Assembly: GCF_006345805.1 (NCBI RefSeq)
Contig: NC_043007.1
Location: 9,796,001 to 9,860,000 of the forward strand
Length of the DNA stretch: 64,000 nucleotides
Reading direction: 5' to 3'
Origin: Octopus sinensis
Taxonomy: Eukaryota
The notes under the pieces were generated by a model. It was not told the origin of the DNA, searched no databases, and saw nothing but the letters and a program-made list of their open reading frames with translations. Below are positions 12,401 through 61,721 of this stretch, in pieces. The first letter of the stretch is position 1. Each line of letters opens with the position of its first letter. Position numbers and translations under genes: made by a program.

Positions 12401-15400
12401 ACTTAATCCGTTTGTCTGTCCTTCTTTATCCCCTTTATGTTTAACCCCTTGTGGGCAATAAAGAAATAAGAAACTGAAAGAAGTGTATATGTGTATGTAT
12501 GTATGTATGTGTGTCTCCTTGACTTGATATCACTTCACAGTTGTAAGTAGGTGTCACTGTCATACAAATAGTGTTATTCATTTTCAATATTCTACAGAAA
12601 CATGGCCATGGGTGAATATTACCTTGCTTGGAAACAGTAAGGGATAGTGCCGGGAAAAGTATCTGGCCATAATAAAATTGCTTGAACCAACTCCATCTGA
12701 CCCATGCAAGCACAGTAAAGTTAACATTGAAATGATGATAATGTCGCAAAGTACTTTGCGCTGATTGTAATTTTTCTTAATGTTTTTGTTTTCCTTTGAA
12801 GGTACCCCTTAGCATCAGCAGACGATGGCGATCGGCAAAAGCTGCCACTTACGAACAAACACTGTTGAATGTACCTGAAACTCAAGTGACAACTTTGGCC
12901 AATGGTATACGAGTTGCAACTGAAGACTCTGGGATTCCCACTTGTACTGTAAGTTTCTGCTTTTTAAATCCTTAAAATCCTTTAAAATGTTATAGCCCGA
13001 AGGCCGTGGCCATGCTGGGGCACAACTGCTGGAAAAAAAAAATATATGGAATGCTTCACGAATTGGCGTACAAACATGGCATTTAATCCTTACTACTATA
13101 GGTACAAGTCCTGAAATTGCAAAAGAGGGGACTAGTCAATTACATTGACCCCCAACAAAAGATGAAAGGCAAAGTGGAATTTCAATTTTGAATGTATTGA
13201 CAGGCAAAATTCCGCTAAGCATTGAATTCCAGGGGTATATATTTTTTTAAGAGGAAAAGGCGGCAAGCTGGCAGACACGTCAGTGCGCTGGGCGAAATGC
13301 TTAGCGGTATTTCGTCTGTCGTTACATTCTGAGTTCAAATTCCGCTGAGGTCGACTTTGCCTTTCATTCTTTCAGGGTCGATAAATAAAGTACCAGTTTC
13401 ACACTGGGATTGATGTAATCGACTTAATCCCTTTGTCTGTCCTTGTTTGTCCCCTCTATGTTTAGCCCCTTGTGGGTAATAAAGAAATAACTATTTCGTC
13501 TGTCATTACATTCTGAGTTCAAATTCCGCCAAGGTCGACTTTGCCTTTCATCCTTTCAGGGTCGATAAATAAAGTACCAGTTTCACACTGGGGTCGATGT
13601 AATCGACTTAATCCCTTTGTCTGTCCTTATTTGTCCCCTCTATGTTTAGCCCCTTGTGGGCAATAAAGAAATATATATATATATTTTTTTAAGAGGAATT
13701 GTTCTGTCATTTAATGCACAATATATGCAAGATGTTGTAAAGGTAGTAGGAGGAGAGATAAATGTATCAGAGTAGGAGTGAGGATTCTGACCGAAGTTTA
13801 CATTATTTTCTCTAAACAAATCAACAGTTGTGTGAACAGTGATGTGAATGAAAGATCTCACTTTAAAAGTTCATTAATGTTTTATATATATACTAGACTA
13901 CCCGTGACCCATTGGGTCACTGACGGCTCAGATTATAAAACATTGAAGCTGATTTTAACATTGCATTGAAATGAAAATTAATTTTATGATGATTCAGTTA
14001 AATATTTCAATTCGTTCATGTCATCATAGATCTGGTTTCGAAGTTCATGTTTAAGGTTTTATTAATTATTTACAGTATCTAATAGAAATAGAATGTCCGG
14101 GATGAACTTGAACTCCAGTAACAGCATTTATTTATGGCTTATGTGCACACTTCTACAAAAATGCAAAAGAAATTGTTATATAACATAAACATAAAATTAA
14201 TAAAAAAAATCTTCGCAGTATTATATATCCCTATTTCAGAGTTATGTTACTTTCAGAGTATTTTCCCATTATGCGCCATTTTGACTATTTATGAAGGTAC
14301 CCCAAAAAAAATCACATATCTCGGAAATCCATAGTCCGATTAACTCGAAACTTGTTTTATTCCAGTTGTATTCACATTTCAAGGCTACCTTACTTTCAGA
14401 GTATTTTCCCATTTTGCGCCAGTTTGGCTGTATTGAATTACAGACAAGCACGCACACATGGAAGCAAGCAGTCACAGTTTTTGTAGTATATAGATATATA
14501 TGTGTGAGTGTGTTGTAATGAGCTGTGCTATTATTAGTGTTTTTTTTCTCTTTGGCTTGTACAAATGTCTTCTACTTTAGCCCTGGTCCAACCAATGCCT
14601 TATAAGTAAATTTGGTAGATGGTCACTGAAAGGTGCCTATCATGTATGTCATCATCATCATCATCGTTTAACATCCACTTTCCATGCTAGCATAGGTTGG
14701 ACGATTTGACTGAGGACTGGCAAACCAGATGGCTGCACCAGGCTCCAATCTTGATCTGGCAGAGTTTCTACAGCTGGATGCCCTTCCTAATGCCAACCAC
14801 TCCGAGAATGTAGTAGGTGCTTTTATGTACCACCGGCACGAGGGCCAGTCCAGTGGCACTGGCAACAACCTCACTCAAGTGGGGTTTTTTTCACGTGCCA
14901 TTCGGGCAACGCTGGCAACAATCACGCTCGAATGGCGCTTTTTACGTGCCACCAGCACGGAAGCCACTTAGCCGCTCTGATACAACGATCACGCTCGGAT
15001 GGTGCATGTGTATACATGTGTGTGTGTGTGTGTTTTAGTGTCTTCTTGCCTTGACATTGCCTGAGAGTTGTAAACAAGTGCCACCATTATGCAAATATTG
15101 CCCTTTATTTTCATTCTTCCATGAAAATTTGTTTGATCATGGGGAAATATTACCTTGGAAAAGGCAAGGGTTGGTGATAGGAAGGGCATCCTGCCATAGA
15201 AAATGCATCTCATCAAATTCCATCCAGCCCATGCAATCACAAAAAAAGTGGACATTCAAATGATGTTGATGATATCCATTATAATAATCCGTGCCATTGT
15301 TATTGTTTGTTTTTAAGTTATGTATCTGACTGTTGTAACAATTTTTTTTATTATTCTTCTTTTGTACTTGTGTATGTGTCTCTTATAATGTACTATTCTT

Positions 15401-15635
15401 GTTTGTTTTCTTCTCAAGGTTGGCTTGTGGATCGATGCTGGCAGCAGGTTCGAAAATGACAGCAATAACGGTGTGGCACATTTCTTGGAGCATATGATAT
15501 TCAAAGGAACATCAAAACGTTCCCAAACTAGTCTGGAGCTTGAAGTTGAAAACATGGGTGCCCATCTGAATGCCTACACTTCTCGTGAACAGACAGTCTA
15601 TTATGCCAAGTGCTTCAGTAAAGATTTACCTCAAG

Positions 15636-18618: not shown

Positions 18619-21600
18619 GTCCATAAATTACAGACATCACTAAATATATCCCCAATGGTTGTTATATTTTTTGATAACATAATAGGTTAGATAGGATGAT
18701 GTCTATATTACAATAACCAATAGTATGTTGTGCATGTATGGTGATATTACGATCGTGAAATTAGCATTAGCTTATCGTATTCACTTCTCGCGGAACCCCT
18801 AGGAACCTTTTGCAGAAACCTAGGTTTCCAGGGAACCCCGATTGAGAAACACTACTGTAGAGGGGAAAAGAGGGAAGAAGATGGAGGTGATATTATTTCT
18901 TTCTCTTCCCTTCTCTCTGAAACCCTACCATCTTGTTTCCCCATCTAATTTTATAAACACTTCCCTAATTCTATTCCAATTTTGTATTTTCCCAGTTAAG
19001 GTTTATAGCTGCTTTATCATGGTACCTCGTGCCGATTCACCTACAAAACATGAAGTGATTTAATTCCTGTTTGTTTTTGCTTGTGTTTTAGGAAGTTGAG
19101 ACTAATCTCCAAGAAGTTATATTTGACCATCTTCATTCAATAGCTTACCAAGGTACACCTCTTGGCCGTACAATCTTAGGACCCACTGAGAATATTAAGT
19201 AAGCAAGCTGATATTTCTATTTATCTATTTTTCGTAGCTTATTTGAGATAGATTAGTTTTAACAGCTTATCTGATGGAGATTGAAATCCATCTACCACCA
19301 CGACCACCCCCACCATTGGCAGCAGTTTAATGTTAACTCACACAGCTTTTGTCTAAGATTGCACACCAACATACCTTGACAACCATCTTGCCCTGTGTAC
19401 CTTGACACATTGTCATCAGAAAGACTGTGCTACATTCATGTGTGTGTGTTTAAAAGTATTAATAAAAAATACTTGATACAATCTCAATATTTGCATGTCA
19501 TCCTCGTTTATTCCTTTGAAATTTCAATTTCTTAGTACCACTTTATACTTAACTGATGCTTCATTTCACAGTATATCTGAGTCCAGGTGATTAGCATCAC
19601 AATGCCTATGCAAAGTATAAAAATTTATATATATATATCATCATCTCTTAACATATGTTGGCCATGCTAGCATGGGCTAGACAGTGTGACGAAAGTTGGC
19701 AAGCTGGGGGCTTCACCAAACTCCAGTCTGATTGGCATGGTTTCCACGGCTGGATTCGCCTCATAACACCAATCACATTACAGTGTGTGCTGGATGCTTT
19801 TACATGGTACTACACAGGTGCTTTCACATGGCACTGTACAGATGCTTTTACATGTTGCCACACAGACACTTTTACGAGGCACCACCATGGGTGCTTTACA
19901 CAACCAGAAGGTTCGGTCTAAACACTTTTGCTGCAGGCTACAGGTCTTCTTGAGTACAGCCAGGTGTCTCAGTCCTTCGTCATCTTGCCTGAAAGGTTCA
20001 GCTTCCTGAGACCATTTTTCAGTACTTCATCCCATGTCTTCCTGAGTCTCCCACTTCTACAAGTTCCATCCATTTTGATTGAGAGATCGGCACTTCTTTA
20101 TGGAACTGTTGGCATTCATCCATATTACATAACAAAACCAGCACAGTCTCCTCTCTTGTTCACAGCAACAAATTCCCCTTATGCCTAACTTCTCTCTCAG
20201 AACACTGGCACTCTGCCAAACATGTACACTTACATTACACATCCAATATAAATGTACACTTACATTACACATCCAATATAAATGTGAGGTTATATATAAA
20301 AACAGTTTACATTAAGCTTCAGGATCACTCAATACTTTTCATTAGAGTGCCTAAGTATTAATTTTTACAAGGGAAAGGTTGATAGTGGCCTAGAATACAT
20401 TACCTCAAATCTTGATCCTGTTAATTGATTTAATGGTTATTTTCTTTTAATTTCTTTTCATTTTCTGAAGGACTATTAACCGCAATGACCTCAAAGAATA
20501 TATTTCCACTCATTACAAGGGTCCACGTATTGTCCTGGCCGCTGCTGGTGGTAAGTGATACTTTTCTTCTTGGCTGTTTTTGTTTTTTAACAGACTGCAG
20601 TTATTACATGTAACTGGGACACAAGCATATTTAATTCATTAATTTAGCAGCGTCTTCTGAGGTGGTGCGGGTTGTGATATGGTGTAGAGACACTCACGAC
20701 TGTAAGACGATATACATCATAAGGCGGCGAGCTGGCAGAAACGTTAGCATGCCAGGCGAAATGCTTAGCGGTATTTCGTCTGCCGCTATGTTCTGAGTTC
20801 AAATTCCGCCGAGGTCAACTTTGCCGTTCATCCTTTTGGGGTTGATTAAATAAGTACCAGTCACGCACTGGTGTCGATATAAATGACTTAATCCGTTTGT
20901 CTGTCCTTGTTTGTCCTCTCTGTGTTTAGCCCCTTGTGGGTAATAAAGAAATAGATATACATTGTCATCATCATTTCGTATCCACTTTTCCATGCTTGCA
21001 TGGGTCAAACAGAATTTGTTGTGGCAGATTTTCTATGGCCAGATGCCCTTTGTGTTGCTAACCCTCACCTGTTTCCAAGCAAAGTAATGTTTCTTCATTG
21101 CTTGACATGTTTTTCACAGAAGATTAGAAAAGAACACCCTTCTTTGTATGTTGATATGATGCTCATTTTCAACAGTCACATGATATCTAGATAAGAGTAA
21201 ACACAAACAAACACACATACATAATGTGTGTGTGTGTGTATCACAAACATGCATACATTTTTTCACGCTAAGAGTTGCTGAAGCCTGGAACAAACTGCCG
21301 GCATCAGTTGTTAGTTGTCGGAGCACTGCATCCTTCAAAACTTCCATGCTTTCTGAGATTCGCCAACACTACACCTGATTTTCTCCCCTCCATACACACA
21401 CAAGCATGTATCTGACTCATACATTGTTTGCTTTCCAGACATTTTTACGTTACTGCATGTACTTTATATGCACTTTCTGACAAGTTGCATCTCATCTAAA
21501 CTAACTCTCTCTCTAATTAGTTGGGCTATGACCCTCTCCGTAACTTTCATTACCTGATCCAACAGCTTGATACCTCTGTAATTATTTGTATCTAGGGCAT

Positions 21601-24600
21601 CACCTTTACCTTTGTAGCAGTTGACTAGTATGCTGCTACACCAGTCATTGGGTATGACTCCTTCGTGTATCACCTGGTTAACTATACGGGTGACTAGGTT
21701 ATAGCCGACACTGCCAGATATTTTGAGCATCTCTGTAGTAATTCCTGATGGGCCTGGGGCTTTCCCTGTCTTCATGCTTCTAATTGCCTTAGCTACCACG
21801 GAACTATCAACTCAGATAGCTGGTCCCTCTGTTGGATCAACATTCGGCAGACTCTCTTTATCCCATTCATTTTCTTTATTCAGCAACCTTTCATAGTGGC
21901 ATCTCCAAACCTCTCTCTTTGCATCCTCATTTAGCGCAAGTGAACCATCATCCATGCGAACTCACTTCTCTCCTACCACATCACGATTCTCTCTCACACA
22001 CTGTCTTGCAATGCAAAATACCTCAAGTCTTTCATCCTCACAGCTCAGAACATTGGCAAATTTTTTCTTATCCGCTTCCCCTCTGGCTAAATAAACCTGT
22101 CTCCTAGCTTCCCTTCTGGCTGTCTGATACAATTCCCTGCTACCACCGTTCTTCCAGTCCTTCCAAGCCTGTCTCTTTTGTCTAATAGCCCTGTCAACCA
22201 CAGTGTTCCACCACCATGTTACTCTGGGTCGAGATGGTACTTTGCTCCATCCACAGATCTGGTCAGTGGCTGTCAGCAGATTGTCCCGTAGAAATCTCCA
22301 GTTGTCTTCCACATTAAGTGAAGCTATATCCCCTTCTATTTCGTCAAAGGCTTCGAGTAGTATATCTCTAAATCTCTGTCCATTTGCAGGATCTTTAAGC
22401 TTCCAGACCCTTCTCCTCCAAGCTGGTCTTCTTCTGGTCAACCATTTAGCTCTGATCCTGAAGTCGCTAACTACTAATCTATGTTGAGGAGTACATTCTT
22501 CGCCTGGAAAGGTTTTGGCATTTATGATCAGCCCTCTTTCCCTTTTTCTGGCAAGGATATAGTCAATCTGGCTGGTGTGTCTGCCAGAACGGTAGGTGAC
22601 TAGGTGAGAGGTGGGTTTCCTGAAGTTGGTATTGCAGACCATAAGGTCATTTGCATCGCAGAACTCCAGCAGCCTGGTTCCCTCCTCATTACGAGAGCCA
22701 AAACCGTAGCCTCCATGGACGCCATGGAAGCCCCCGACATGCCGTCCAACATGTCCATTGAAATCACCTGCCACGAAGAGAAGGTCACTGTCATTTGTCA
22801 ACGAGGTAGTCCGCAATAGGGTGTCATAGAATTGGTCTTTTTGTCCTTCCGGTAGCCCTGGTTGAGGGGCATATGCCGAGATGATGGTAGCTGTCCTATG
22901 GTGAAGGACTAATCTAATTTTAATTACTCTGTCACTTACTCTGACTACCTCGATTACCTTATCTACCCATTTCTCTGCAAGAAGTATACCCACGCCCCCG
23001 ATCCCGTCAGTGTTCCCTGCCCAGAAAATCTTGTACCTGTGTTCCTTGCCTGTGAGGAGCCTAGCGGAACCTCCTCTCCACCTTACTTCCTGGATGCAGC
23101 ATACATCCACACGTCTCCGTTCAAGCAGCTCTACAATCTCTCCAGACCTACCTTTCAATGTGCCAACTCTAAGGGTGTGGGAGGTGTGGGCTTCTGAGAC
23201 CCTGGGATGAGGGACAGCCGTGTCATGTACCTGAAAAGAAAGCTTGCATTTGGCAGATTTCATATGGAAACACTAGACTACAACCTGCATACATTTCACA
23301 ATTTTTTGCGCTATATGATCAGATAAATCCTACATAGAGGTGCGAGTGGGGGTGGGGAGTAGTTAAGTAAGACAGAGGTCGAAACTTCCGGTATTGGTGG
23401 AGGGGGTGGGAGGGCGGGGGAACATCGAAGCAACTAGTTTGAATATAATTCGTAAGGAATTCTCTCTGCAATAAAATTACTGAATTTGAGGGGAAAAATA
23501 ATTAGATAAATGAATGAAAAAAGAATAAATAATAAATACGATATGATATGATACGAGGGAGCATATTTTGAAGGAGAATGGAATAAACAATGAAGATGGC
23601 GCTGAAAGTAAAGGTGGAGTTTAAAAATGCATGAAGACGCCATGTTTAGAGATAAATAGAGAAACGAAAGGGGAGCAGATCAAGGTATCCAAACAAACGC
23701 TTAAAAATATGAAAGTAACAGGTTGGAAGTTAAGGTCTTAGCTGGCCATTTTTGAAAATCCGTGTTTTCTCTGGAGGTGTAGCGAGTAATGAGGAGGGGA
23801 TACGATCATCCACTGGCTTATAAGGAATTAGGGATTTGTGTGTGTGTGAGGGGGGGGTCAGGAACACGAGGAGAGAGAGAGAGAACATCGAAGCAACTAG
23901 TTTGAATATAATTCGTAAGGAATTCTCTCTGCAATAAAATTACTGAATTTGAGGGGAAAAATAATTAGATAAATGAATGTAAAAAAAAATAAATAATAAA
24001 TACGATATGATATGATATGATACGAGGGAGCCTATTTTGAAGGAGAATGTGTTCCAGTTGTTATATTAATGTTTCTGTTTATCTTACAGGTGTGAACCAT
24101 GACAATCTGGTCAAGCTATCTGAGCAGTATTTTGGCAACATCACTGCTGGTTATGATTCAGAAATCCCCATCAGTGCACCTTGCCGCTTTACTGGCTGTG
24201 ATGTAGGTATATCTCTTCATAATAAACAACTAAACAATCATCATCATCATCATTTAGCATCTGCTTTCCCAGCTGGCATGGGTCGGTCGGTTTGACTGAA
24301 AACTGATAAGGATGGAGGTTTGCACTAGCTTCCAGTCTGATTTGGCATGGTTTCTACGGCTGGATGCCCTTCCTAATGCCAACCACTCCAAGAGTGTAGT
24401 GGGTGTTTTTTCATGTGGCATGGGTGCCATTGACTTGACACTGGCTTCAGCCACGATTACGGTCTCACTTGGCTTAGCAGGTCTACACAAGCATGGTATA
24501 TTGCCAAAGATCTTGGTCACCTTTCCCTGCTTCCATAAGGTCCAACGCTTGAATGGTGCTTTTTATGTGCCACCAGCACAGGTGCCAGTCAGATGTCACT

Positions 24601-27600
24601 GGCATCGGCCTGATTCGACGGTCATTCGGAATGCTCACAGCAGCCATATTCCTACCGCTCTATGTCACGCTGGTGAGACCCATGTTGGAGTACGGGATTC
24701 AAGCCTCTTCTCCTTATCTCCTCAGAGACATGCATCATCTTGGAAGAGTCCAGAAGCTGGCTACCCGCATGGTTCTTGGTCTCAAGCATTTGTCTTATGA
24801 AGAAAGGCTGAAGACGCCGCCACCGTAATGATCTCATTCTCGCTCACAACATCATAAGCGGAAAATGTAACCTCTCGAAAGAGCTGTTCTTCACTCCTGC
24901 TCCTGCGATGATTTCATCTCAATCGAAGGAGAGGGGCTTTCTCCATCCGGGTTGCGGATCCGTGGAATAAGCTGCCGGACGAAATAGTGAAGATGCCAAC
25001 GGCCGCTCGGTTCAAAGTCTCTCTTGACCAGAAATGGCCTGAACTCTTTGCATGAACACCCTCCCTGTACATAACTCCATGTCCTCCTACATGGCCTTGC
25101 TTTTTGCTTTTTGAGCCAAAAAATTAACTTAACTATGATTTCACTCGGTTCAACAGGTCTTCACACGCACAGCATATCACCTAACGATTGAAGGGTGCTT
25201 TTAAGGGGTCAGTTACATGACACCAGCATCAGCTGTGACTATGATCTCACTTAGCTTTGACGGGTCTTCTCAAGCACGACTTATCTCCAAAGATCTCGGT
25301 CACTTGTCATTGCTTCTGTGAGACCCAACATTCAAAGATTGTGCTTCACCATAACCCTTTTTTTTTTTTTCCATATCCATCTTCACCAGCAGGTTTTTGC
25401 CTTACACCAGCCATTCCTTGCCATCCAATCTTGTGCTTCGCTAGTATTAGCAAATCAATTTACATTTTGTGACGTACATTTGCCATTTAAATATGGCTAA
25501 CCCCTAAGGGTAGATGCTACTGTAGTTTGTAGCCCCTGGAGGACACCTCCTCCAGCTGGCCATAGACACACTTTCTGTGCCCTATCCCTTAGGGGTTAGC
25601 CATATTTAAATGGCAAATATACGTCACGATGTGTTGTAGCTACTGTTTATAACTCGCTCTGAGATTTATTATTGCTTGTTTACACTTTTTCGATATCAGT
25701 GTCTTTACGATACTGGAAAAAGTTTATGTATTTGTGAAGGGAACCTACTTCTCATCAACAACTGTGATTGTCACACGCCGATGACGGGTCCAATACCCAG
25801 AAACTTGAGTCCGTGTGTATCATAAGTTGAAGACGGGAGGGATGACTTCCCTTTGCAAACACTGATAGGGCACAGAAAGTGTGTCTATGGCCAGCTGGAG
25901 GAGGTGTCCTCCTGGGGCTACAAACTACAGTAGCATCCACTCTTAGGGGTTAGCCATATTTAAATGGCAAATGTACGTCACAATTTACATTTTCTTTGAA
26001 ATAAATTTTGTTTACTAAAGATCACATACCCCTTGAGTTCATTAGAGAGCTTTTACACAGTCAGTCAATCTGCTGGAAATAGAAGGCAGATGTCTTATCC
26101 AGTTTCTTTAAGAAAGGGTATATTTGATAATGTGGTCTTAGATATTCTATGTCTGAAAATGAAATATAAAAGACACCAGGAATGTTGTGTTGTTGACCTG
26201 CAATTAAACAAATTCAACAGCAGCATCATAAAACCTTTATTTGTCATAGTTGGTGTATGTATTATGTACCAGTTTTTGCATTTATGCATAAAGTTCCTGT
26301 GTTTGTGTATTTATGCATAATATACCAGGTGCATATTTATGAGGAGGTGCTGAAAGTTCCTGGCTTTAAGGATTCCTAGCTGGAGGTCCAACGTTCTGAG
26401 TTTTTGGTTTTTTTTGTTTGTTTTTTTTTTACAAGGCTTATAATAATAATAATGAAATTATTGTATACAGTGCTCAGGTGCACCACAACTTGTCAGAAAG
26501 TGCGTATAAAGTGTATGCAGTAATGTGCAAATGTCTGGAAAGCGAACAATGTATGAGTCAGATACATGCTTGTGTGTGTATGGAGGGGAGGAAATCAGGT
26601 GTAGTGTTGGCGAATCTCAGGAAGCATGGAAGTTTTGAAGGATGCAGTGCTCCGACAACTAACAACCGATGCCGGCAGTTTGTTCCATGCTTCAGCAACT
26701 CTCAGCGTGAAAAAATGTTTCCTAAAGTCATGGGAGCTGTGCTGTTTTCTGACTTTGTAAACATGTCCATGGGTGTTAGACGGGTGGAGTTTGAAAAGGT
26801 GCTCAGAGTTATTGTATGTAAGATGGTTGATAATTTTATGGGTATCTGCCAAGTTAGCTGCCAGATGTCGGAGTTTCAATGTGTCCATGCCCAGGGAAGT
26901 AAGGCGTTCAGAATATGGCAAATGCCTGATGGAGGGTATTTTTTTGGTTGCACGTCGCTGAACGGCTTCCAGATGATTAATATCCTGGGCAAGATAAGGG
27001 TTCCAAACCGGTGATGCAAATTCCAGGTGAGGTCTTACCATAGCTGTATAAAGCCGCAGATAGATAGTCGGAGAGCGGCTCACAAAGGATTTTTAGAAAA
27101 ACTAAAGGACCACTTCAATAAGTGTGTGAATCTGAGAGGGGAATATGTTGAATAAAATCATAACTGATCATCCTGTACTTTCTTTTACCCGAAGCCAGGA
27201 ACGTTTTAGCAGCCCCTCGCGTGTGTATGTATATATATATATAATAGTGGACCAAAGTGTGTTTGTGTATCTATGCATAATTACCAGTGTGTGTGTGTGT
27301 GTTCATATACAATGTACCAGTAAGTTTATGTTTAACTTCGATTTCTTCACAGATTCGTGTACGTGATGACGACATGCCATTGGCTCATGTTGCTTTGGCA
27401 GTGGAAGGATGTGGCTGGAGTAATGCGGACAATATTGCTTTAATGGTGGCCAACACTCTGATTGGTAGCTGGGATCGCAGTCATGGCGGTGGTGCCAATT
27501 TGGCTGGGCGTTTAGCTAGCAATTCTGCCAGAGGCAACCTCTGCCACAGCTTCCAGGCCTTCAATACCTGTTACACAGACACCGGGATGTGGGGCATCTA

Positions 27601-28057
27601 CTTTGTGTCAGAGAAACTTTCAATTGATGACATGATCTTCAACATACAGAACGAATGGTAAGTTGCTTTTCAGCATCATCATCATCATCGCTGTTATTGT
27701 CTCCATGACCAGGAGAATAATTGGTTGGATTAGCACACAGCAAAAATATATTGCAGAAATTATTAAGTATATATAGGACTGAAGAATGTTTTTATTACTT
27801 GATCTCACTCTCTCTCATATTAATTGTTGAAGAACAAGTGTTATTTACAGTACACAATGACAACTGGCAATCCTTCTATTCTTCTACTTGTTTCAGTCGT
27901 TTGACTGCGGCAATGCTGGCACACTGCCTTCAGTCGAGCAAATCAACCCCAGGACTTATTCTTTGTAAGCCTAGTACTTATTCTATTGGTCTCTTTTGCC
28001 AAACGCTAAGTTACAGGCACATTAACACACCAGCATTGGTTGTCAAGCAATGTCGGG

Positions 28058-56760: not shown

Positions 56761-57082
56761 TCTATATATATATATAAAGCTGAAGTTGTATGTGTATGGC
56801 AGGTTTGGTAGCCTTCAACTAACACTATCTCCTCCCAGACCCTGCGGCGCAAGTTGATCAAAATTGAGAGTATGATAGAAGAAGGCTTGCTCTTCCTTCC
56901 GTAGAAGAAAAAATTCAAATCGGGCCATCTTAACACCAAAAATTATTTAAATAAAAAAGGTGCTTTTTTTCTATGAAAATCCCTATTTTTTACGATTTTT
57001 TGACTGCTGTGTTGCCATTTTTCGGTGTATTTCACCAGAAAAATGTTCACTTAAAGAGAATAACAAGCTACATAATGCAAAT
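56761..57082 (+). mobile_element. Helitron-like 5' portion
   Basis: Begins TCTATATATATATATAAAGCTGAAGTTG like the other Helitron 5' ends; no 3' CTAG end is seen before the satellite. Confidence 0.5.
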
Positions 57083-58308
57083 GAGGAGTCCCGAAAGAGA
57101 TCAAAGAGGAATCCCAAAAGAGATCGAAGAGGGTCCCGAAAGAGATCAAAGAGGAGTCCCGTAAGAGATCAAAGAGAGTGCCGAAAGAGATCAAAGAGGG
57201 TGCCGAAAGAGATCAAAGAGGGGTCCCGTAAGAGATCAAAGAGAATGCCGAAAGAGATCAAAGAGGGTGCCGAAAGAGATCAAAGAGGGTCCCGAAAGAG
57301 ATCAAAGAGGGTGCCGAAAGAGATCAAAATGGGTGCAGAAAGAGATCAACGAAGGTGCCGAAAGAGATCAAAGAGGGTGCCGAAATAGATCAAAGAGGGT
57401 GCCGAAAAAGATCAAAGAGGGTGCTGAAAGAGACCAAAGAGGAGTCCCGAAAGAGATCAAAGAGGGTGCCGAAAGAGGTCAAAGGGGAGTCCCGTAAGAG
57501 ATCGAAGAGGGTGCCGAAAAAGATCAAAGAGGGTGCCGAAAGAGACTAAAGAGGAATCCCGAAAGAGATCAAAGAGGGTCCCGAAAGAGATCAAAGAGGG
57601 TGCCGAAAGAGATCAAAGTGGGTGCCGAAAAAGATCAAAGAGGTTGCAGAAAGAGATCAACGAAGGTGCCGAAAGAGATCAAAGAGGGTGCCGAAAGAGA
57701 TCACAGAGGGTGCCGAAAGAGATCAAAGAGGGTGCCGAAAGAGATCAAAGAGGGTGCCGAAAGTGATCAAAGAGGAGTTCCAAAAGAGATCAAAGAGGGT
57801 GCCGAAATAGATCAAAGAGGGTGTCGAAATAGATCAAAGAGAGTGACGAAAGAGATCAAAGAGGGTGCCGAAAGAGATCATAGAGGAGTCCCGTAAGAGA
57901 TCAAAGAGAGTGCCGAAAGAGATCAAAGAGGGTGCCGAAAGAGATCAAAGAAAGTGCCGAAAGAGATCAAAGAGAGTGCCGGAAGAGATCAAAGAGGGTG
58001 ACGAAAGAGATCAAAGATAGTGCCGGAAGAGATCAAAGAGAGTGCCGGAAGAAATCAAAGAGAAGTCCCGAAAGAGATCGAAGAGGGTGACGAAAAAGAT
58101 CAAAGATAGTGCCGAAAGAGATCAAAGAGGGTGTCGAAAAAGATCAAAGAGGGTGCTGAAAGAGATCAAAGAGGGTGCCGAAAGAGATCAAAGAGGAGTC
58201 CCGGAAGAGATCAAAGAGGGTGCCGAAAGAGATCAAGGAGGGTGCCGAAAGAGATCAAAGTGGAGTCCCGAAAGAGATCAAAGTGGAGTCCCGAAAGAGA
58301 TGAAAGAG
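57083..58308. repeat. 22-bp minisatellite (GAGGGTGCCGAAAGAGATCAAA, with a 23-bp variant), about 55 units
   Basis: Direct reading; the 22-aa periodicity of the pseudo-ORFs equals three units. Confidence 0.95.
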
Positions 58309-58365
58309 ACGGTCATCATCATTATCATCATCGTCATCATCATCATCATCAACAACAACAATAAC

Positions 58366-59978
58366 AACCCGAAACCTAACCCCTAACCCTAACCCAAAAC
58401 TTAACCCTAAAGTTAAACTTAACCCTAACCAGAACCCTAACTCTAACCCCTAACCCGAAACCTAACCCATAACCCTAACGCCTAATCCTAACGCTAAGCT
58501 TTAACCCTAACATTAACCCTAACACTAAACCTAACCCTAAACCTAACCCAAATCCTAACCCTAACATTAACCCCTATCCCCAAACCCTCACCCTAACTCT
58601 GACACTAACCACTTACCTTAACATTAAACCCTAACCTTAACCCTAACCCCTAACACTAACCCTAACCCTAACACCAAAACCTAACCCTAAATCTAATCCT
58701 AACATAATCCCTAACTCTAACCCTAACCCCTAACCCCTAAAACTAACCCTAACCCCAACAATAACCCTAACCCTAACTCTCACCCTAACCCTAACCCTAA
58801 CCACTAACTCTAACCCTAACCCTAACCCCTAAACCTAACCCTAAATCTAATCCTAACCCTAATCCTAACCCTAAACCTAACGCTAACATCCACCCTAACC
58901 TTAACCGTTACCCTAACGCTAACCCCTAACCCTAACGCTAACCCCTAACCCTAACGCTAACCCCTAACCATAACCCTAGCCCTAACACTAACCCTAACCC
59001 TAACCCTAACCCCTAACACTAAACCTAACCCTAACCCCTAACCCTAAACCTAAACCTAACCCTAACCCTAACTCTAACCCCTAACACTAACCCTAGCCCC
59101 TAACCCTAACCCTAAACCTAACCCCAACCCTAAACCTAACCCCTAACCCTAACGCTAACCCTAACCCTAACATTATCCCTAACCCTAACCCTAACCCTAA
59201 CTCTAACCCTAACCCTAACCCAAACCCTAACCCTAACATTAACCCTAACCCTAACCCTACCCCTAATCCTAATCCTAACCCCTAGCCCTAACCATACCCT
59301 AATTCTAACGCTGACCATAACAATAACCCCAACCGTAACCCTAACCTTAACCCCTAACACTAACCCTAACCCTAACCTGAACCCTAATCCGAACGCTAAC
59401 CTAAACCCTAACCCTAACCCGAACCCGGACCCTGACGCTAACCCTAACCCCAACCCTAACCCCTAACCCTAACCCTAACCCTAATCCTACCCCTAACCCT
59501 AACCCTAAACCTAACCTCCACCAAAAAACTGACCCTAATCTTAACCTAACCCCAAACCCTAACCCAAACCCTAAACCCTGACCTTATCCCTGACCCTAAC
59601 CCCAAACCCTAACCCTAAACATACCCCTAACCCCAACCCTAAAACTAACCCTGACCCTTACCCCTAACCTCTAACACTAAACCTAACCTTAACACTAACC
59701 CTAACCATAACCCTAACCCTAAACCGAAACTCCACCCCAACCTAACCAAAACACTAACCCCTAACCCTAACGCTAACCCTCACCCTAACATTTACCATGA
59801 CACTAACCCTAACCCTAACCCTAAACCTAACCCTAAACCTAACCCTAACCCTAACCACTATCTCTAACCCTAACCCTAACACTAACCCTAACCCAAAACT
59901 TAACTCTAACATTACCCGAACACTAACAATAACCCAAACCCTATCCCTAAAACTAACCCCTAATCCAAACCCTAGCAC

Positions 59979-60019
<41 letters not shown>

Positions 60020-61721
60020 CCCGTAACACTAGCCCTAACACTAACACTTACCCTAACCCTAACCCTAACCCCTGACCCTAACCCTAATCCCTTACCCTGA
60101 CCCTAACCCTAATCCCTTACCCTTACCCTAACCCTAACACAAACCATAACCCTAACCCTAACCTTAACCCTCACCCTAACCTCCACCCCAACCCTGACCG
60201 TAACCCTGACGCAAACCCCTAACCCTAACCCTAAACCTAACCCTGACCCAAACCCCTGACACTAACCCTAACCCTAAACCCCAACCCTAACCTAAACCTA
60301 ACCCTAACCGCAACCCTAAACCTAACCCTAACCCTAACCCCTAACCCTAAGCCTAACTCTAACCCCTAACCCCTAACACTAACACTAACCCTAACCCTAA
60401 ACCTAACACTAACCTTATCCTAACCCTAACCCTAACACTAACCCCTAACCCAAACCCTAACCCCTAACCCTAACCCTAACACTAACCCTAACGCTAATCC
60501 TAACACTAATCTTAACCTCCACCCAACCCCAACCCTAACCCTAACATAACCCCAAACCCTAACGCTAACCCCTAACCCTAACCCAAACCCTAACACTAAA
60601 CATAACACTAACCCTAACACTAACCCAACCCTAACCCCTTACCTTAACCCAAACCCTAACACTAACCCTAACCCTAACTCTAACCCTAACCACTAACCCT
60701 AACCCTAACCCTAACCACTAACCCTAACACTAACAATAACCCTAACCCTAAACATCACTCTAAGCTCCACCCTAACCCTGACCCTAACCCTAAACCTAAC
60801 CCCTAACCCTAACACCTAACCGTAACCGTAACCCTAACCACTAACCCAAACACTAAACCTAAAACTTTACCCTAACACTAACACTAACCCTAACCCTAAC
60901 CCTAACCTTACCCAAATCCTAACCCTTACCTCTAACCAAAACCCCTAACACTAACCCTAGCACTAACCCAAACCTTAACCCTAAACGCTAACCCTAAACC
61001 TAACCCTAAACCGAACCCCAACCCTAACCCTAACTCTAACCCCTAACCCCTATCCCTAACCCTAAACCTAACCCTAAACCTAACCCTAACACTAACCCTA
61101 ACGCTAACCCTAACCCTAACACGAACCCTAACCCAAACCCTATCCCTAAAACCTAAACTCTAAACCTAACCCAAACCCGAACCCTAAAACTAACCCTTAC
61201 ACTAACTCTAACCCTGACCCTAACACTGACCCTATACATAACCCTAACCCTAACCACTAACACTAACGCTAACCCCTATCCCTAACCCTAACCCTAACCC
61301 TAATCCTAACCCGAACCCTAACACTAACAATAACCTTAACCCTTACCCAAACCCTATCCCTAACCCTAAACGTAACTCTAACCCTAACCCTTAACCTAAC
61401 CCTAACCTTAACCCTAACCCCTAAAACTAACGCTAACCCCTAACCCTAACCCTAACCCCTAACCATAACCATAACCATAACCCTAAACGTAACACCTAAC
61501 CCTAACGCTAAACCTAACCCTAACCTGCACCCTAGCCCTAACCCTAACCCTAACCCTAACCCCTAACCCAAACCCTAACCCTAACCCTAAACCTAACCCT
61601 AACCCTAATACCTAACCCGAACCTTAACCCTAACAACCCTAACCCTAACTCTTACGCTAACCCTAACTCTAAACCTAAACCGAACCACTAACCCTAACAA
61701 TAACCACTAACCCTTAACCCT
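58366..61721 (-). repeat. Degenerate telomere-type array (TTAGGG)n on the - strand, ~3.35 kb
   Basis: The + strand reads (CCCTAA)n with many variant hexamers and heptamers. Confidence 0.95.

Follow-up and report, generated by a model that had tools for sequence, protein, structure and literature searches.

The intronic insertion considered here raises the question of whether a hammerhead-like RNA motif, read in the sense orientation within a gene of the 64,000-nt stretch of Octopus sinensis DNA that was analysed (the window), acts in the transcript that carries it or belongs to a mobile element, and, in the latter case, how a non-coding element is spread. The exons surrounding the insert on the + strand encode an M16 peptidase, the closest solved structures to the product are UQCRC1/MPP-beta, and an HXXEH-type motif is found in the host exon at 15422. 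A first-pass annotation placed the insert on the sense strand of intron 7 of PMPCB; an MPP-beta-like gene, an intronic position and the sense orientation are all borne out, but the number 7 holds only if one host exon precedes position 12840. The preceding intron contains LINE-like endonuclease and RT fragments on the minus strand (21464-23272), named from their translation only.

The anatomy agrees with the same annotation, which described a 512-bp insert with a 13-bp target-site duplication (TSD), a 118-bp inverted arm, a 41-bp direct copy and one 354-nt unit: the duplications are identical at 13/13 positions with 512 bp between them, and all of the parts are located in the sequence (Table 1). 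Repeat comparison gives inverted arms of 120 nt (25467-25586 and 25864-25983, 98% identity) and direct copies of 43 nt (25588-25630 and 25942-25984, 95% identity, spacing 354), and between the inverted and the direct arm of the intronic copy 3 of 116 sites are mismatched. The insert is non-coding, as had been stated, with no stop-free frame of at least 90 aa overlapping the unit. The length of 354 nt is correct as the spacing in this copy, but the period of the family to which it belongs is 352-353 nt. The structured 3' domain is likely to be the region of protein binding and RT start. The right junction of the insert is bridged by contigs of two DNA runs, X15 and X16 (the assembly itself may derive from one of them), and no empty insertion site appears among the matches listed from sequencing-run contigs. 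Contigs of one run, guessed to be RNA, cover the unit in a form from which level, strand and circle cannot be read. The two arms (25469-25983) would pair in the pre-mRNA as an RNA duplex of ~118 bp (predicted pair probability 1.0), which could possibly be an editing substrate.

Table 1. Features of the intronic insert and its neighbouring host exons (positions in the window)
Feature	Position	Strand	Remarks
Upstream host exon (MPP-beta/core-1 family)	24098..24205	+	boundaries approximate
Left copy of 13-bp TSD	25456..25468		repeat comparison
Inverted 5'-truncated arm	25469..25586	-	unit positions 235-352, tail absent
Partial upstream unit	25587..25629	+	last ~42 nt, head-to-tail with full unit
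Full non-coding unit	25630..25983	+	stops at first of two family 3' ends, tail absent
Extended type-I hammerhead fold with distal helices and internal loop	25759..25829	+	folding predictions, descriptor
Stem I	25772-25777/25812-25817	+	
Core, 5' half	25778..25784	+	U4C at 25779 (subfamily trait)
Stem II	25786-25789/25795-25798	+	
Palindromic stem III	25803-25810	+	
C-to-T change breaking the family's perfect stem III palindrome	25806..25806	+	
GUC, predicted cut after 25811	25809..25811	+	descriptor
3' domain, structured, common to sister families	25864..25983	+	fewest inherited changes at unit 235-312
Right copy of 13-bp TSD	25981..25993		first 2-3 nt also match element end
Downstream host exon, Peptidase_M16_C	27353..27661	+	

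The type-I hammerhead topology reported for the unit was recovered by a strict descriptor (6-bp stem I, core, 4-bp stem II, GAAA, self-complementary stem III, UH), which matches once in the window, with the core at 25778 and the cut after 25811, and gives 0 matches on both strands of 150 simulated 64-kb windows. An Rfam search of the insert returned no hammerhead family at E<=10, so the motif is of a minimal or variant type outside the Rfam models. Stem I is longer than first described, with two further helices formed by 25759-25768 and 25819-25829. Against the canonical core C3 U4 G5 A6 N7 G8 A9 ... G12 A13 A14 A15.1 ... U16.1 H17, the intronic copy has C4 and is thus a variant-core motif, within a family that is hammerhead-bearing. 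The base of its stem II is a G-C pair next to which a C and an A stand unpaired; elsewhere this position is A-U paired, in one youngest form, or G-C, in sister family D. The extra C in loop II is rare, being absent from 29 of 29 other family copies, as is the U at 25806, where the family reads C at ~99% of depth in each of four runs.

Folding predictions bear on the earlier suggestion that the palindromic stem III acts in a dimer. In the monomer fold of the intronic copy the hammerhead is not the MFE structure and stem III has a pair probability of 0.0, with stem I at 0.66 and stem II at 0.41 in the fold of the insert, whereas the predicted MFE structure of the dimer is a double hammerhead, in keeping with that suggestion. 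The double hammerhead was obtained for the intronic copy and one typical sibling but not for an old and a youngest U4 copy (2 of the 4 copies folded). The dimer helix, at -10.7 kcal/mol without the change at 25806, is weakened by it to -5.8 kcal/mol.

The unit is abundant in the genome. A search with it gave 2,878 first-look candidates, the top 40 at 93-100%; a 24-mer from the 3' end has 1,452 exact matches (0 for the reversed control), and two hammerhead patterns have 412 and 286, the latter being the youngest U4 form with a new stem II. From the places listed for these matches we estimate the family at about a thousand loci or more. For closer analysis 152 loci were fetched in three sets, comprising the 30 best matches, 60 chosen by hammerhead pattern and 62 chosen by 3' pattern along one contig. 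Copies range from 74% to 100% identity and the period of ~352 nt is kept in all subfamilies; arms are 29-651 nt long, and those longer than one unit always run into another unit and never into an ORF. Two hammerheads are found in 9 arms among 256, and the intronic copy is itself a monomer. In size and content the unit corresponds to a retrozyme: non-coding, within ~170-400 nt, and with one type-I hammerhead.

Profile searches uncovered two sister families, B and D, together with several relatives at a greater distance. Family B (L141-L170, for example L144:438-1887 and G000:C14:41636044-41639307; 1,258 first-look candidates) has units of ~345 nt, a stem I of entirely different sequence that is still paired, and a core with C4 in 10/13 and U4 in 3/13 motif matches. 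Family D (L282-L306, for example L299, G000:C8:59745788-59748956; 1,456 first-look candidates) has 352-nt units in near-identical copies, including dimers and a trimer, likewise with a tail of ~44 nt; its U3 is accompanied by G8 in 26/37 and by A8 in 11/37 motif matches, some of these loci overlapping. Distant unit relatives were also seen by profile search in the flanks of other loci (L009:980-1298, L211:712-944, L261:757-924, L222:671-993, L118:2425-2524), and in the one at L009 the core is canonical and the stems are different.

Conservation of the fold was assessed in 96 distinct motifs (83 from the family itself, designated A, and 13 from family B), which had been picked for an intact core. 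Pairing is retained in 94.8% of 1,726 cells, compared with 19-56% in slid controls, and double-sided changes number 93, compared with 23 in shuffles, with change on both sides in 10 of the 18 hammerhead pairs; the copies conserve core and stems, and compensatory changes support the fold. The double-sided cells come mostly from few events (the 13 sister-family rows and one stem II change), and for this reason display a history more than a statistic. The events are the replacement of the whole of stem I in B, a distal pair passing among G-C, G-U and A-U, a stem III palindrome altered via a G-U step, and a change of stem II from G-C to A-U. Inherited variants are found in 0 of 11 other core columns and in 83 of 336 columns elsewhere, a comparison partly biased by the selection for core.

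A midpoint-rooted tree of 112 units, for which family B was not used as root and bootstrap is not fully settled, forms a ladder: old U4 units, a C4 burst (100/100) that includes the intronic copy, C4 units with a new stem II and, nested, a U4 clade whose branches are the shortest in the tree. C4 is carried by 47 of the 52 rows of the burst clade. Sampling more widely disproved the proposal that U4C is the mark of the youngest clade, as the youngest units have the canonical U4; this reversion is a C-to-T change at a CpG and hence mutationally easy. The insert had been called young, which is true in a relative sense only: its terminal branch is ~0.02, and the youngest subfamily, with U4, has branches mostly <0.01. 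Nor are the U4C change and the C-A at the base of stem II this copy's own, as had been implied; both are subfamily traits that later reverted. As to their supposed attenuating effect, U4C, a known natural variant, is reported to be less active in vitro, yet it supported viroid infection (PMC3088659).

The insertions carry a recognisable signature. TSDs of 12-15 bp are present at 13 of 28 non-microsatellite two-armed loci, and (TA)n flanks at 48 of 76 two-armed loci; the 13 bp of the intronic copy exceed the >4 bp that characterises non-LTR retrozymes. The partial tandem, the inverted 5'-truncated copy, the optional tail and the AT-rich or microsatellite target together reproduce the signature of non-autonomous EN+ Penelope-like elements (PLEs). 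The 3' ends cluster at unit positions 343-353 and 40-55, ~44 nt apart. In 56 of 78 two-armed junctions both ends lie at these two 3' sites, the other 22 having an end at neither, and the 56 classifiable junctions divide into 53 tail/unit, 3 unit/unit (the intronic copy among them) and 0 tail/tail. In the set picked by 3' pattern 32/32 junctions are one-sided (34 under looser parsing), where an independent choice of ends would yield about half. Single-armed copies include 10 with a tail and 15 without, and family D has mostly one-sided tails with one tail/tail exception, L300.

We take this asymmetry to mean that the two DNA ends are primed at different sites. An endonuclease that resolves a DNA intermediate, the alternative suggested by Craig et al. 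(PMC8557442), could likewise leave the ends unequal. Fold-back self-priming, proposed in 2013 (PMC3846280), was considered as the source of the inverted arm and rejected on arm lengths: the tail-less arm is longer than the body of the tailed arm in 33 of 51 cases and shorter in 16, and an arm that is often the longer one cannot, as a rule, have been copied from the other cDNA. Template editing of the A-to-I type was likewise rejected, rare A>G changes occurring at 3.0 and T>C at 3.3 per 1000 sites, with no strand excess. Two separate loci, L203 and L215, have the same arm-to-arm junction (unit 299/232, with a 4-nt overlap), which suggests a microhomology hot spot.

A search for an autonomous RT + GIY-YIG partner of the insert had been proposed: intact RT+GIY-YIG ORFs of 775-781 aa exist in the same genome, and two autonomous PLE families have their own hammerheads and two 3' ends each, but none of the elements in 80 PLE-bearing loci is homologous to the unit. 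BLAST and nhmmer profiles (50 + 30 loci) found the unit there only as separate non-coding insertions, so that it is signatures alone that point to the partner. The family units do not themselves carry the RT + GIY-YIG ORF of an autonomous PLE. Protein searches gave PLE-like relatives, and no clade was assigned. An RT ORF beside a copy at L137 was rejected as the partner, as it belongs to a separate PLE family with a TA run between. In the autonomous families L064 (674-4374), L072, L061 and L062, an upstream open frame overlaps the RT+GIY-YIG frame (for example 479 + 781 aa), and the 3' hammerheads have U3-A8 cores. A C4 core occurs in one copy of the L062 family. An apparent C4 core in an autonomous PLE at L060 was dismissed, the motif belonging to a separate small palindromic insertion; such insertions, with a C4-core hammerhead of their own, lie in TA runs beside PLEs at L060:2680-2960 and L035:2920-3100.

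The insert is a copy of a dispersed, non-coding family of 352-354-nt units with a conserved type-I hammerhead fold, and it was likely mobilised, as a non-autonomous PLE, in trans by an RT/GIY-YIG protein. Under this reading multi-unit loci would be transcribed, and two hammerheads, joined by way of their palindromic stem III, would cleave at a slow rate and perhaps release a unit circle. The borrowed protein would then make a staggered double-strand cut of ~13 nt, reverse transcription would be primed from both DNA 3' ends at internal points of the RNA, as a rule with one end per start site, and the two cDNAs would join head to head. In the intronic copy both ends would have started at the first site. 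With one hammerhead and the private stem III change this copy is probably inert; with the U4C core in addition, it is likely a dead end, the transcript of the host gene is expected to be spliced without being cut, and an effect on that pre-mRNA is unlikely.

The ribozyme processing and the circle suggested in the first-pass annotation are putative, and copy comparisons point both ways. The template may instead be an uncut linear multi-unit transcript, with the hammerhead serving as a protein-binding or slow regulatory element and no circle being formed, an account to which we give somewhat less than an even chance. It would explain how U4C was carried through a large burst, why the tandem pair at L140 joins two subfamilies, and why an Anolis PLE is reported to have still inserted in vitro when the hammerhead was mutated (PMC11167929). 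Furthermore, at unit position 344 the inner and outer units differ in the same direction in 5 of 6 cases, the intronic copy included, which is not expected from a monomer circle. Nor is there a peak of 5' ends at the cleavage site, where the bin 181-190 holds 3 of ~103 arms. On the other hand, inherited variants are common to tandem units as often as to two arms (Fisher p 0.10-1.0), a locus-private tract at L296 of family D is common to both tandem units, some arms span two hammerheads, the youngest forms regained U4 and a paired stem II base, and mussel retrozymes of the same size are described as yielding abundant circles (PMC7229834). Comparable elements often fail to cleave in vitro as dimers, the preprint reporting cleavage for 1/9 Xenopus elements (bioRxiv 10.64898/2026.07.22.740005).

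Two other explanations fare much worse. The copies might have no lineage of their own and be no more than 5'-truncated termini (pLTRs) left by a coding, autonomous PLE, as PLE copies are often very short and truncation of the arms is heavy, and as the GIY-YIG candidates scored were 150 of 5,029; but arms that pass one unit enter another unit and never an ORF, the ~350-nt period persists at all levels of divergence, and the sole RT ORF adjoining a copy is the separate family behind a TA run at L137, so that we regard this as highly improbable. It is about as improbable that a ribozyme, active or co-opted, operates from the intronic copy to cut or tune the pre-mRNA of the host gene. In favour of such a role, the copy lies in sense within an intron, the gene is of a housekeeping type, stems I and II are predicted to form in the insert, and the insertion is present in two DNA runs. 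Against it, there is a single hammerhead, so that its partner must come in trans, the U4C core is of a kind less active in vitro (PMC3088659), the private change in stem III leaves the dimer helix at half its strength, and the copy has drifted like its siblings.

The family is of a kind already known, the animal non-LTR retrozymes, or non-autonomous PLEs, and since the class has been described, the copy itself is ordinary. As described for these retrozymes (PMC7229834; bioRxiv 10.64898/2026.07.22.740005), it has non-coding type-I units of ~350 nt, found as monomers, dimers and short multimers, with TSDs >4 bp. The mussel repeats are given as 350-390 bp and form circles (Cervera and de la Pena 2020, PMC7229834), and non-LTR retrozymes co-occur with PLEs and have been argued to be non-autonomous PLEs (Li, Clavereau and Pollet 2026, bioRxiv 10.64898/2026.07.22.740005). 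In contrast to them, the present family is mostly dispersed, truncated and two-armed, has a measurable PLE tail and no more than a putative circle, and lacks detectable pLTR homology to a coding PLE in the 80 PLE loci. The survey of Li, Clavereau and Pollet covers 31 vertebrates, 3 insects and 1 coral, with no mollusc in its main text, and the link between retrozymes and PLEs is here extended to a cephalopod genome. A literature search on cephalopods with hammerhead or non-autonomous Penelope elements, with most subscription papers and Repbase lying outside it, gave no description of the family among the matches listed, and 'twin priming' was absent among the matches listed in a search for that term.

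The hammerhead itself resembles the minimal motifs of PLEs (Cervera and de la Pena 2014, PMC4209133), which are described as type I with a palindromic stem III, an extra nucleotide after A9, predicted dimer action and low expected activity; the U3-A8 core covariant described for them recurs in related families. It departs from that description in a short stem II (4-5 bp) that has an unpaired base on either side, in a long stem I with an internal loop, and in a U4C change that was fixed in one burst and later reverted. The structural traits of the family all agree with published PLE descriptions (PMC8557442, PMC3846280, PMC11167929). Like the insertion units of EN+ PLEs (Arkhipova 2013, PMC3846280; Craig 2021, PMC8557442), it shows partial tandems, an inverted 5'-truncated copy, an optional tail and a (TA)n preference. 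Unlike them it has no ORF, and its tail is ~44 nt and its TSDs 12-15 bp, compared with 8-10 bp in rotifers; their tail is described, in qualitative terms only, as 30-40 bp and often at one end (PMC3846280; PMC8557442), whereas one-sidedness is here counted and near-strict (53/56). In Anolis Poseidon two internal RT start sites are reported, matching the PLE tail (Frangieh 2024, PMC11167929). Chlamys elements such as MRC1 (PMC8557442; PMC9977147) are likewise non-coding PLE partners with head-to-tail copies and short truncated intronic insertions; they have pLTRs and, unlike the family, are described without canonical hammerheads and with 3' sequence common to the autonomous family.

The fresh points are therefore only the near-strict tail asymmetry and the drift and reversion of the core. 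They supply data on two open questions, the inverted tailed ends of PLEs and whether PLE hammerheads must cleave, and the natural ladder of variants (U4, C4 and U4 again; C3-G8, U3-G8 and U3-A8) can be assayed side by side. We tentatively combine them in a dual priming rule, with a staggered cut of ~13 nt, two sites 44 nt apart, one per strand, and independently copied arms, accompanied by a fossil series of ribozyme tuning that would run from the canonical core through the U4C burst to a compensated stem II and regained U4, while the 3-8 pair was swapped in sister families, a combination that is perhaps more doubtful than not; if true, it would make both asymmetric dual priming and the need for cleavage testable with natural variants. 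Elsewhere in the window, a tandem array of a 22-bp repeat (55 copies) is followed, within 57078-60497, by a degenerate AACCCT telomere-like array with 348 copies in the scanned stretch.
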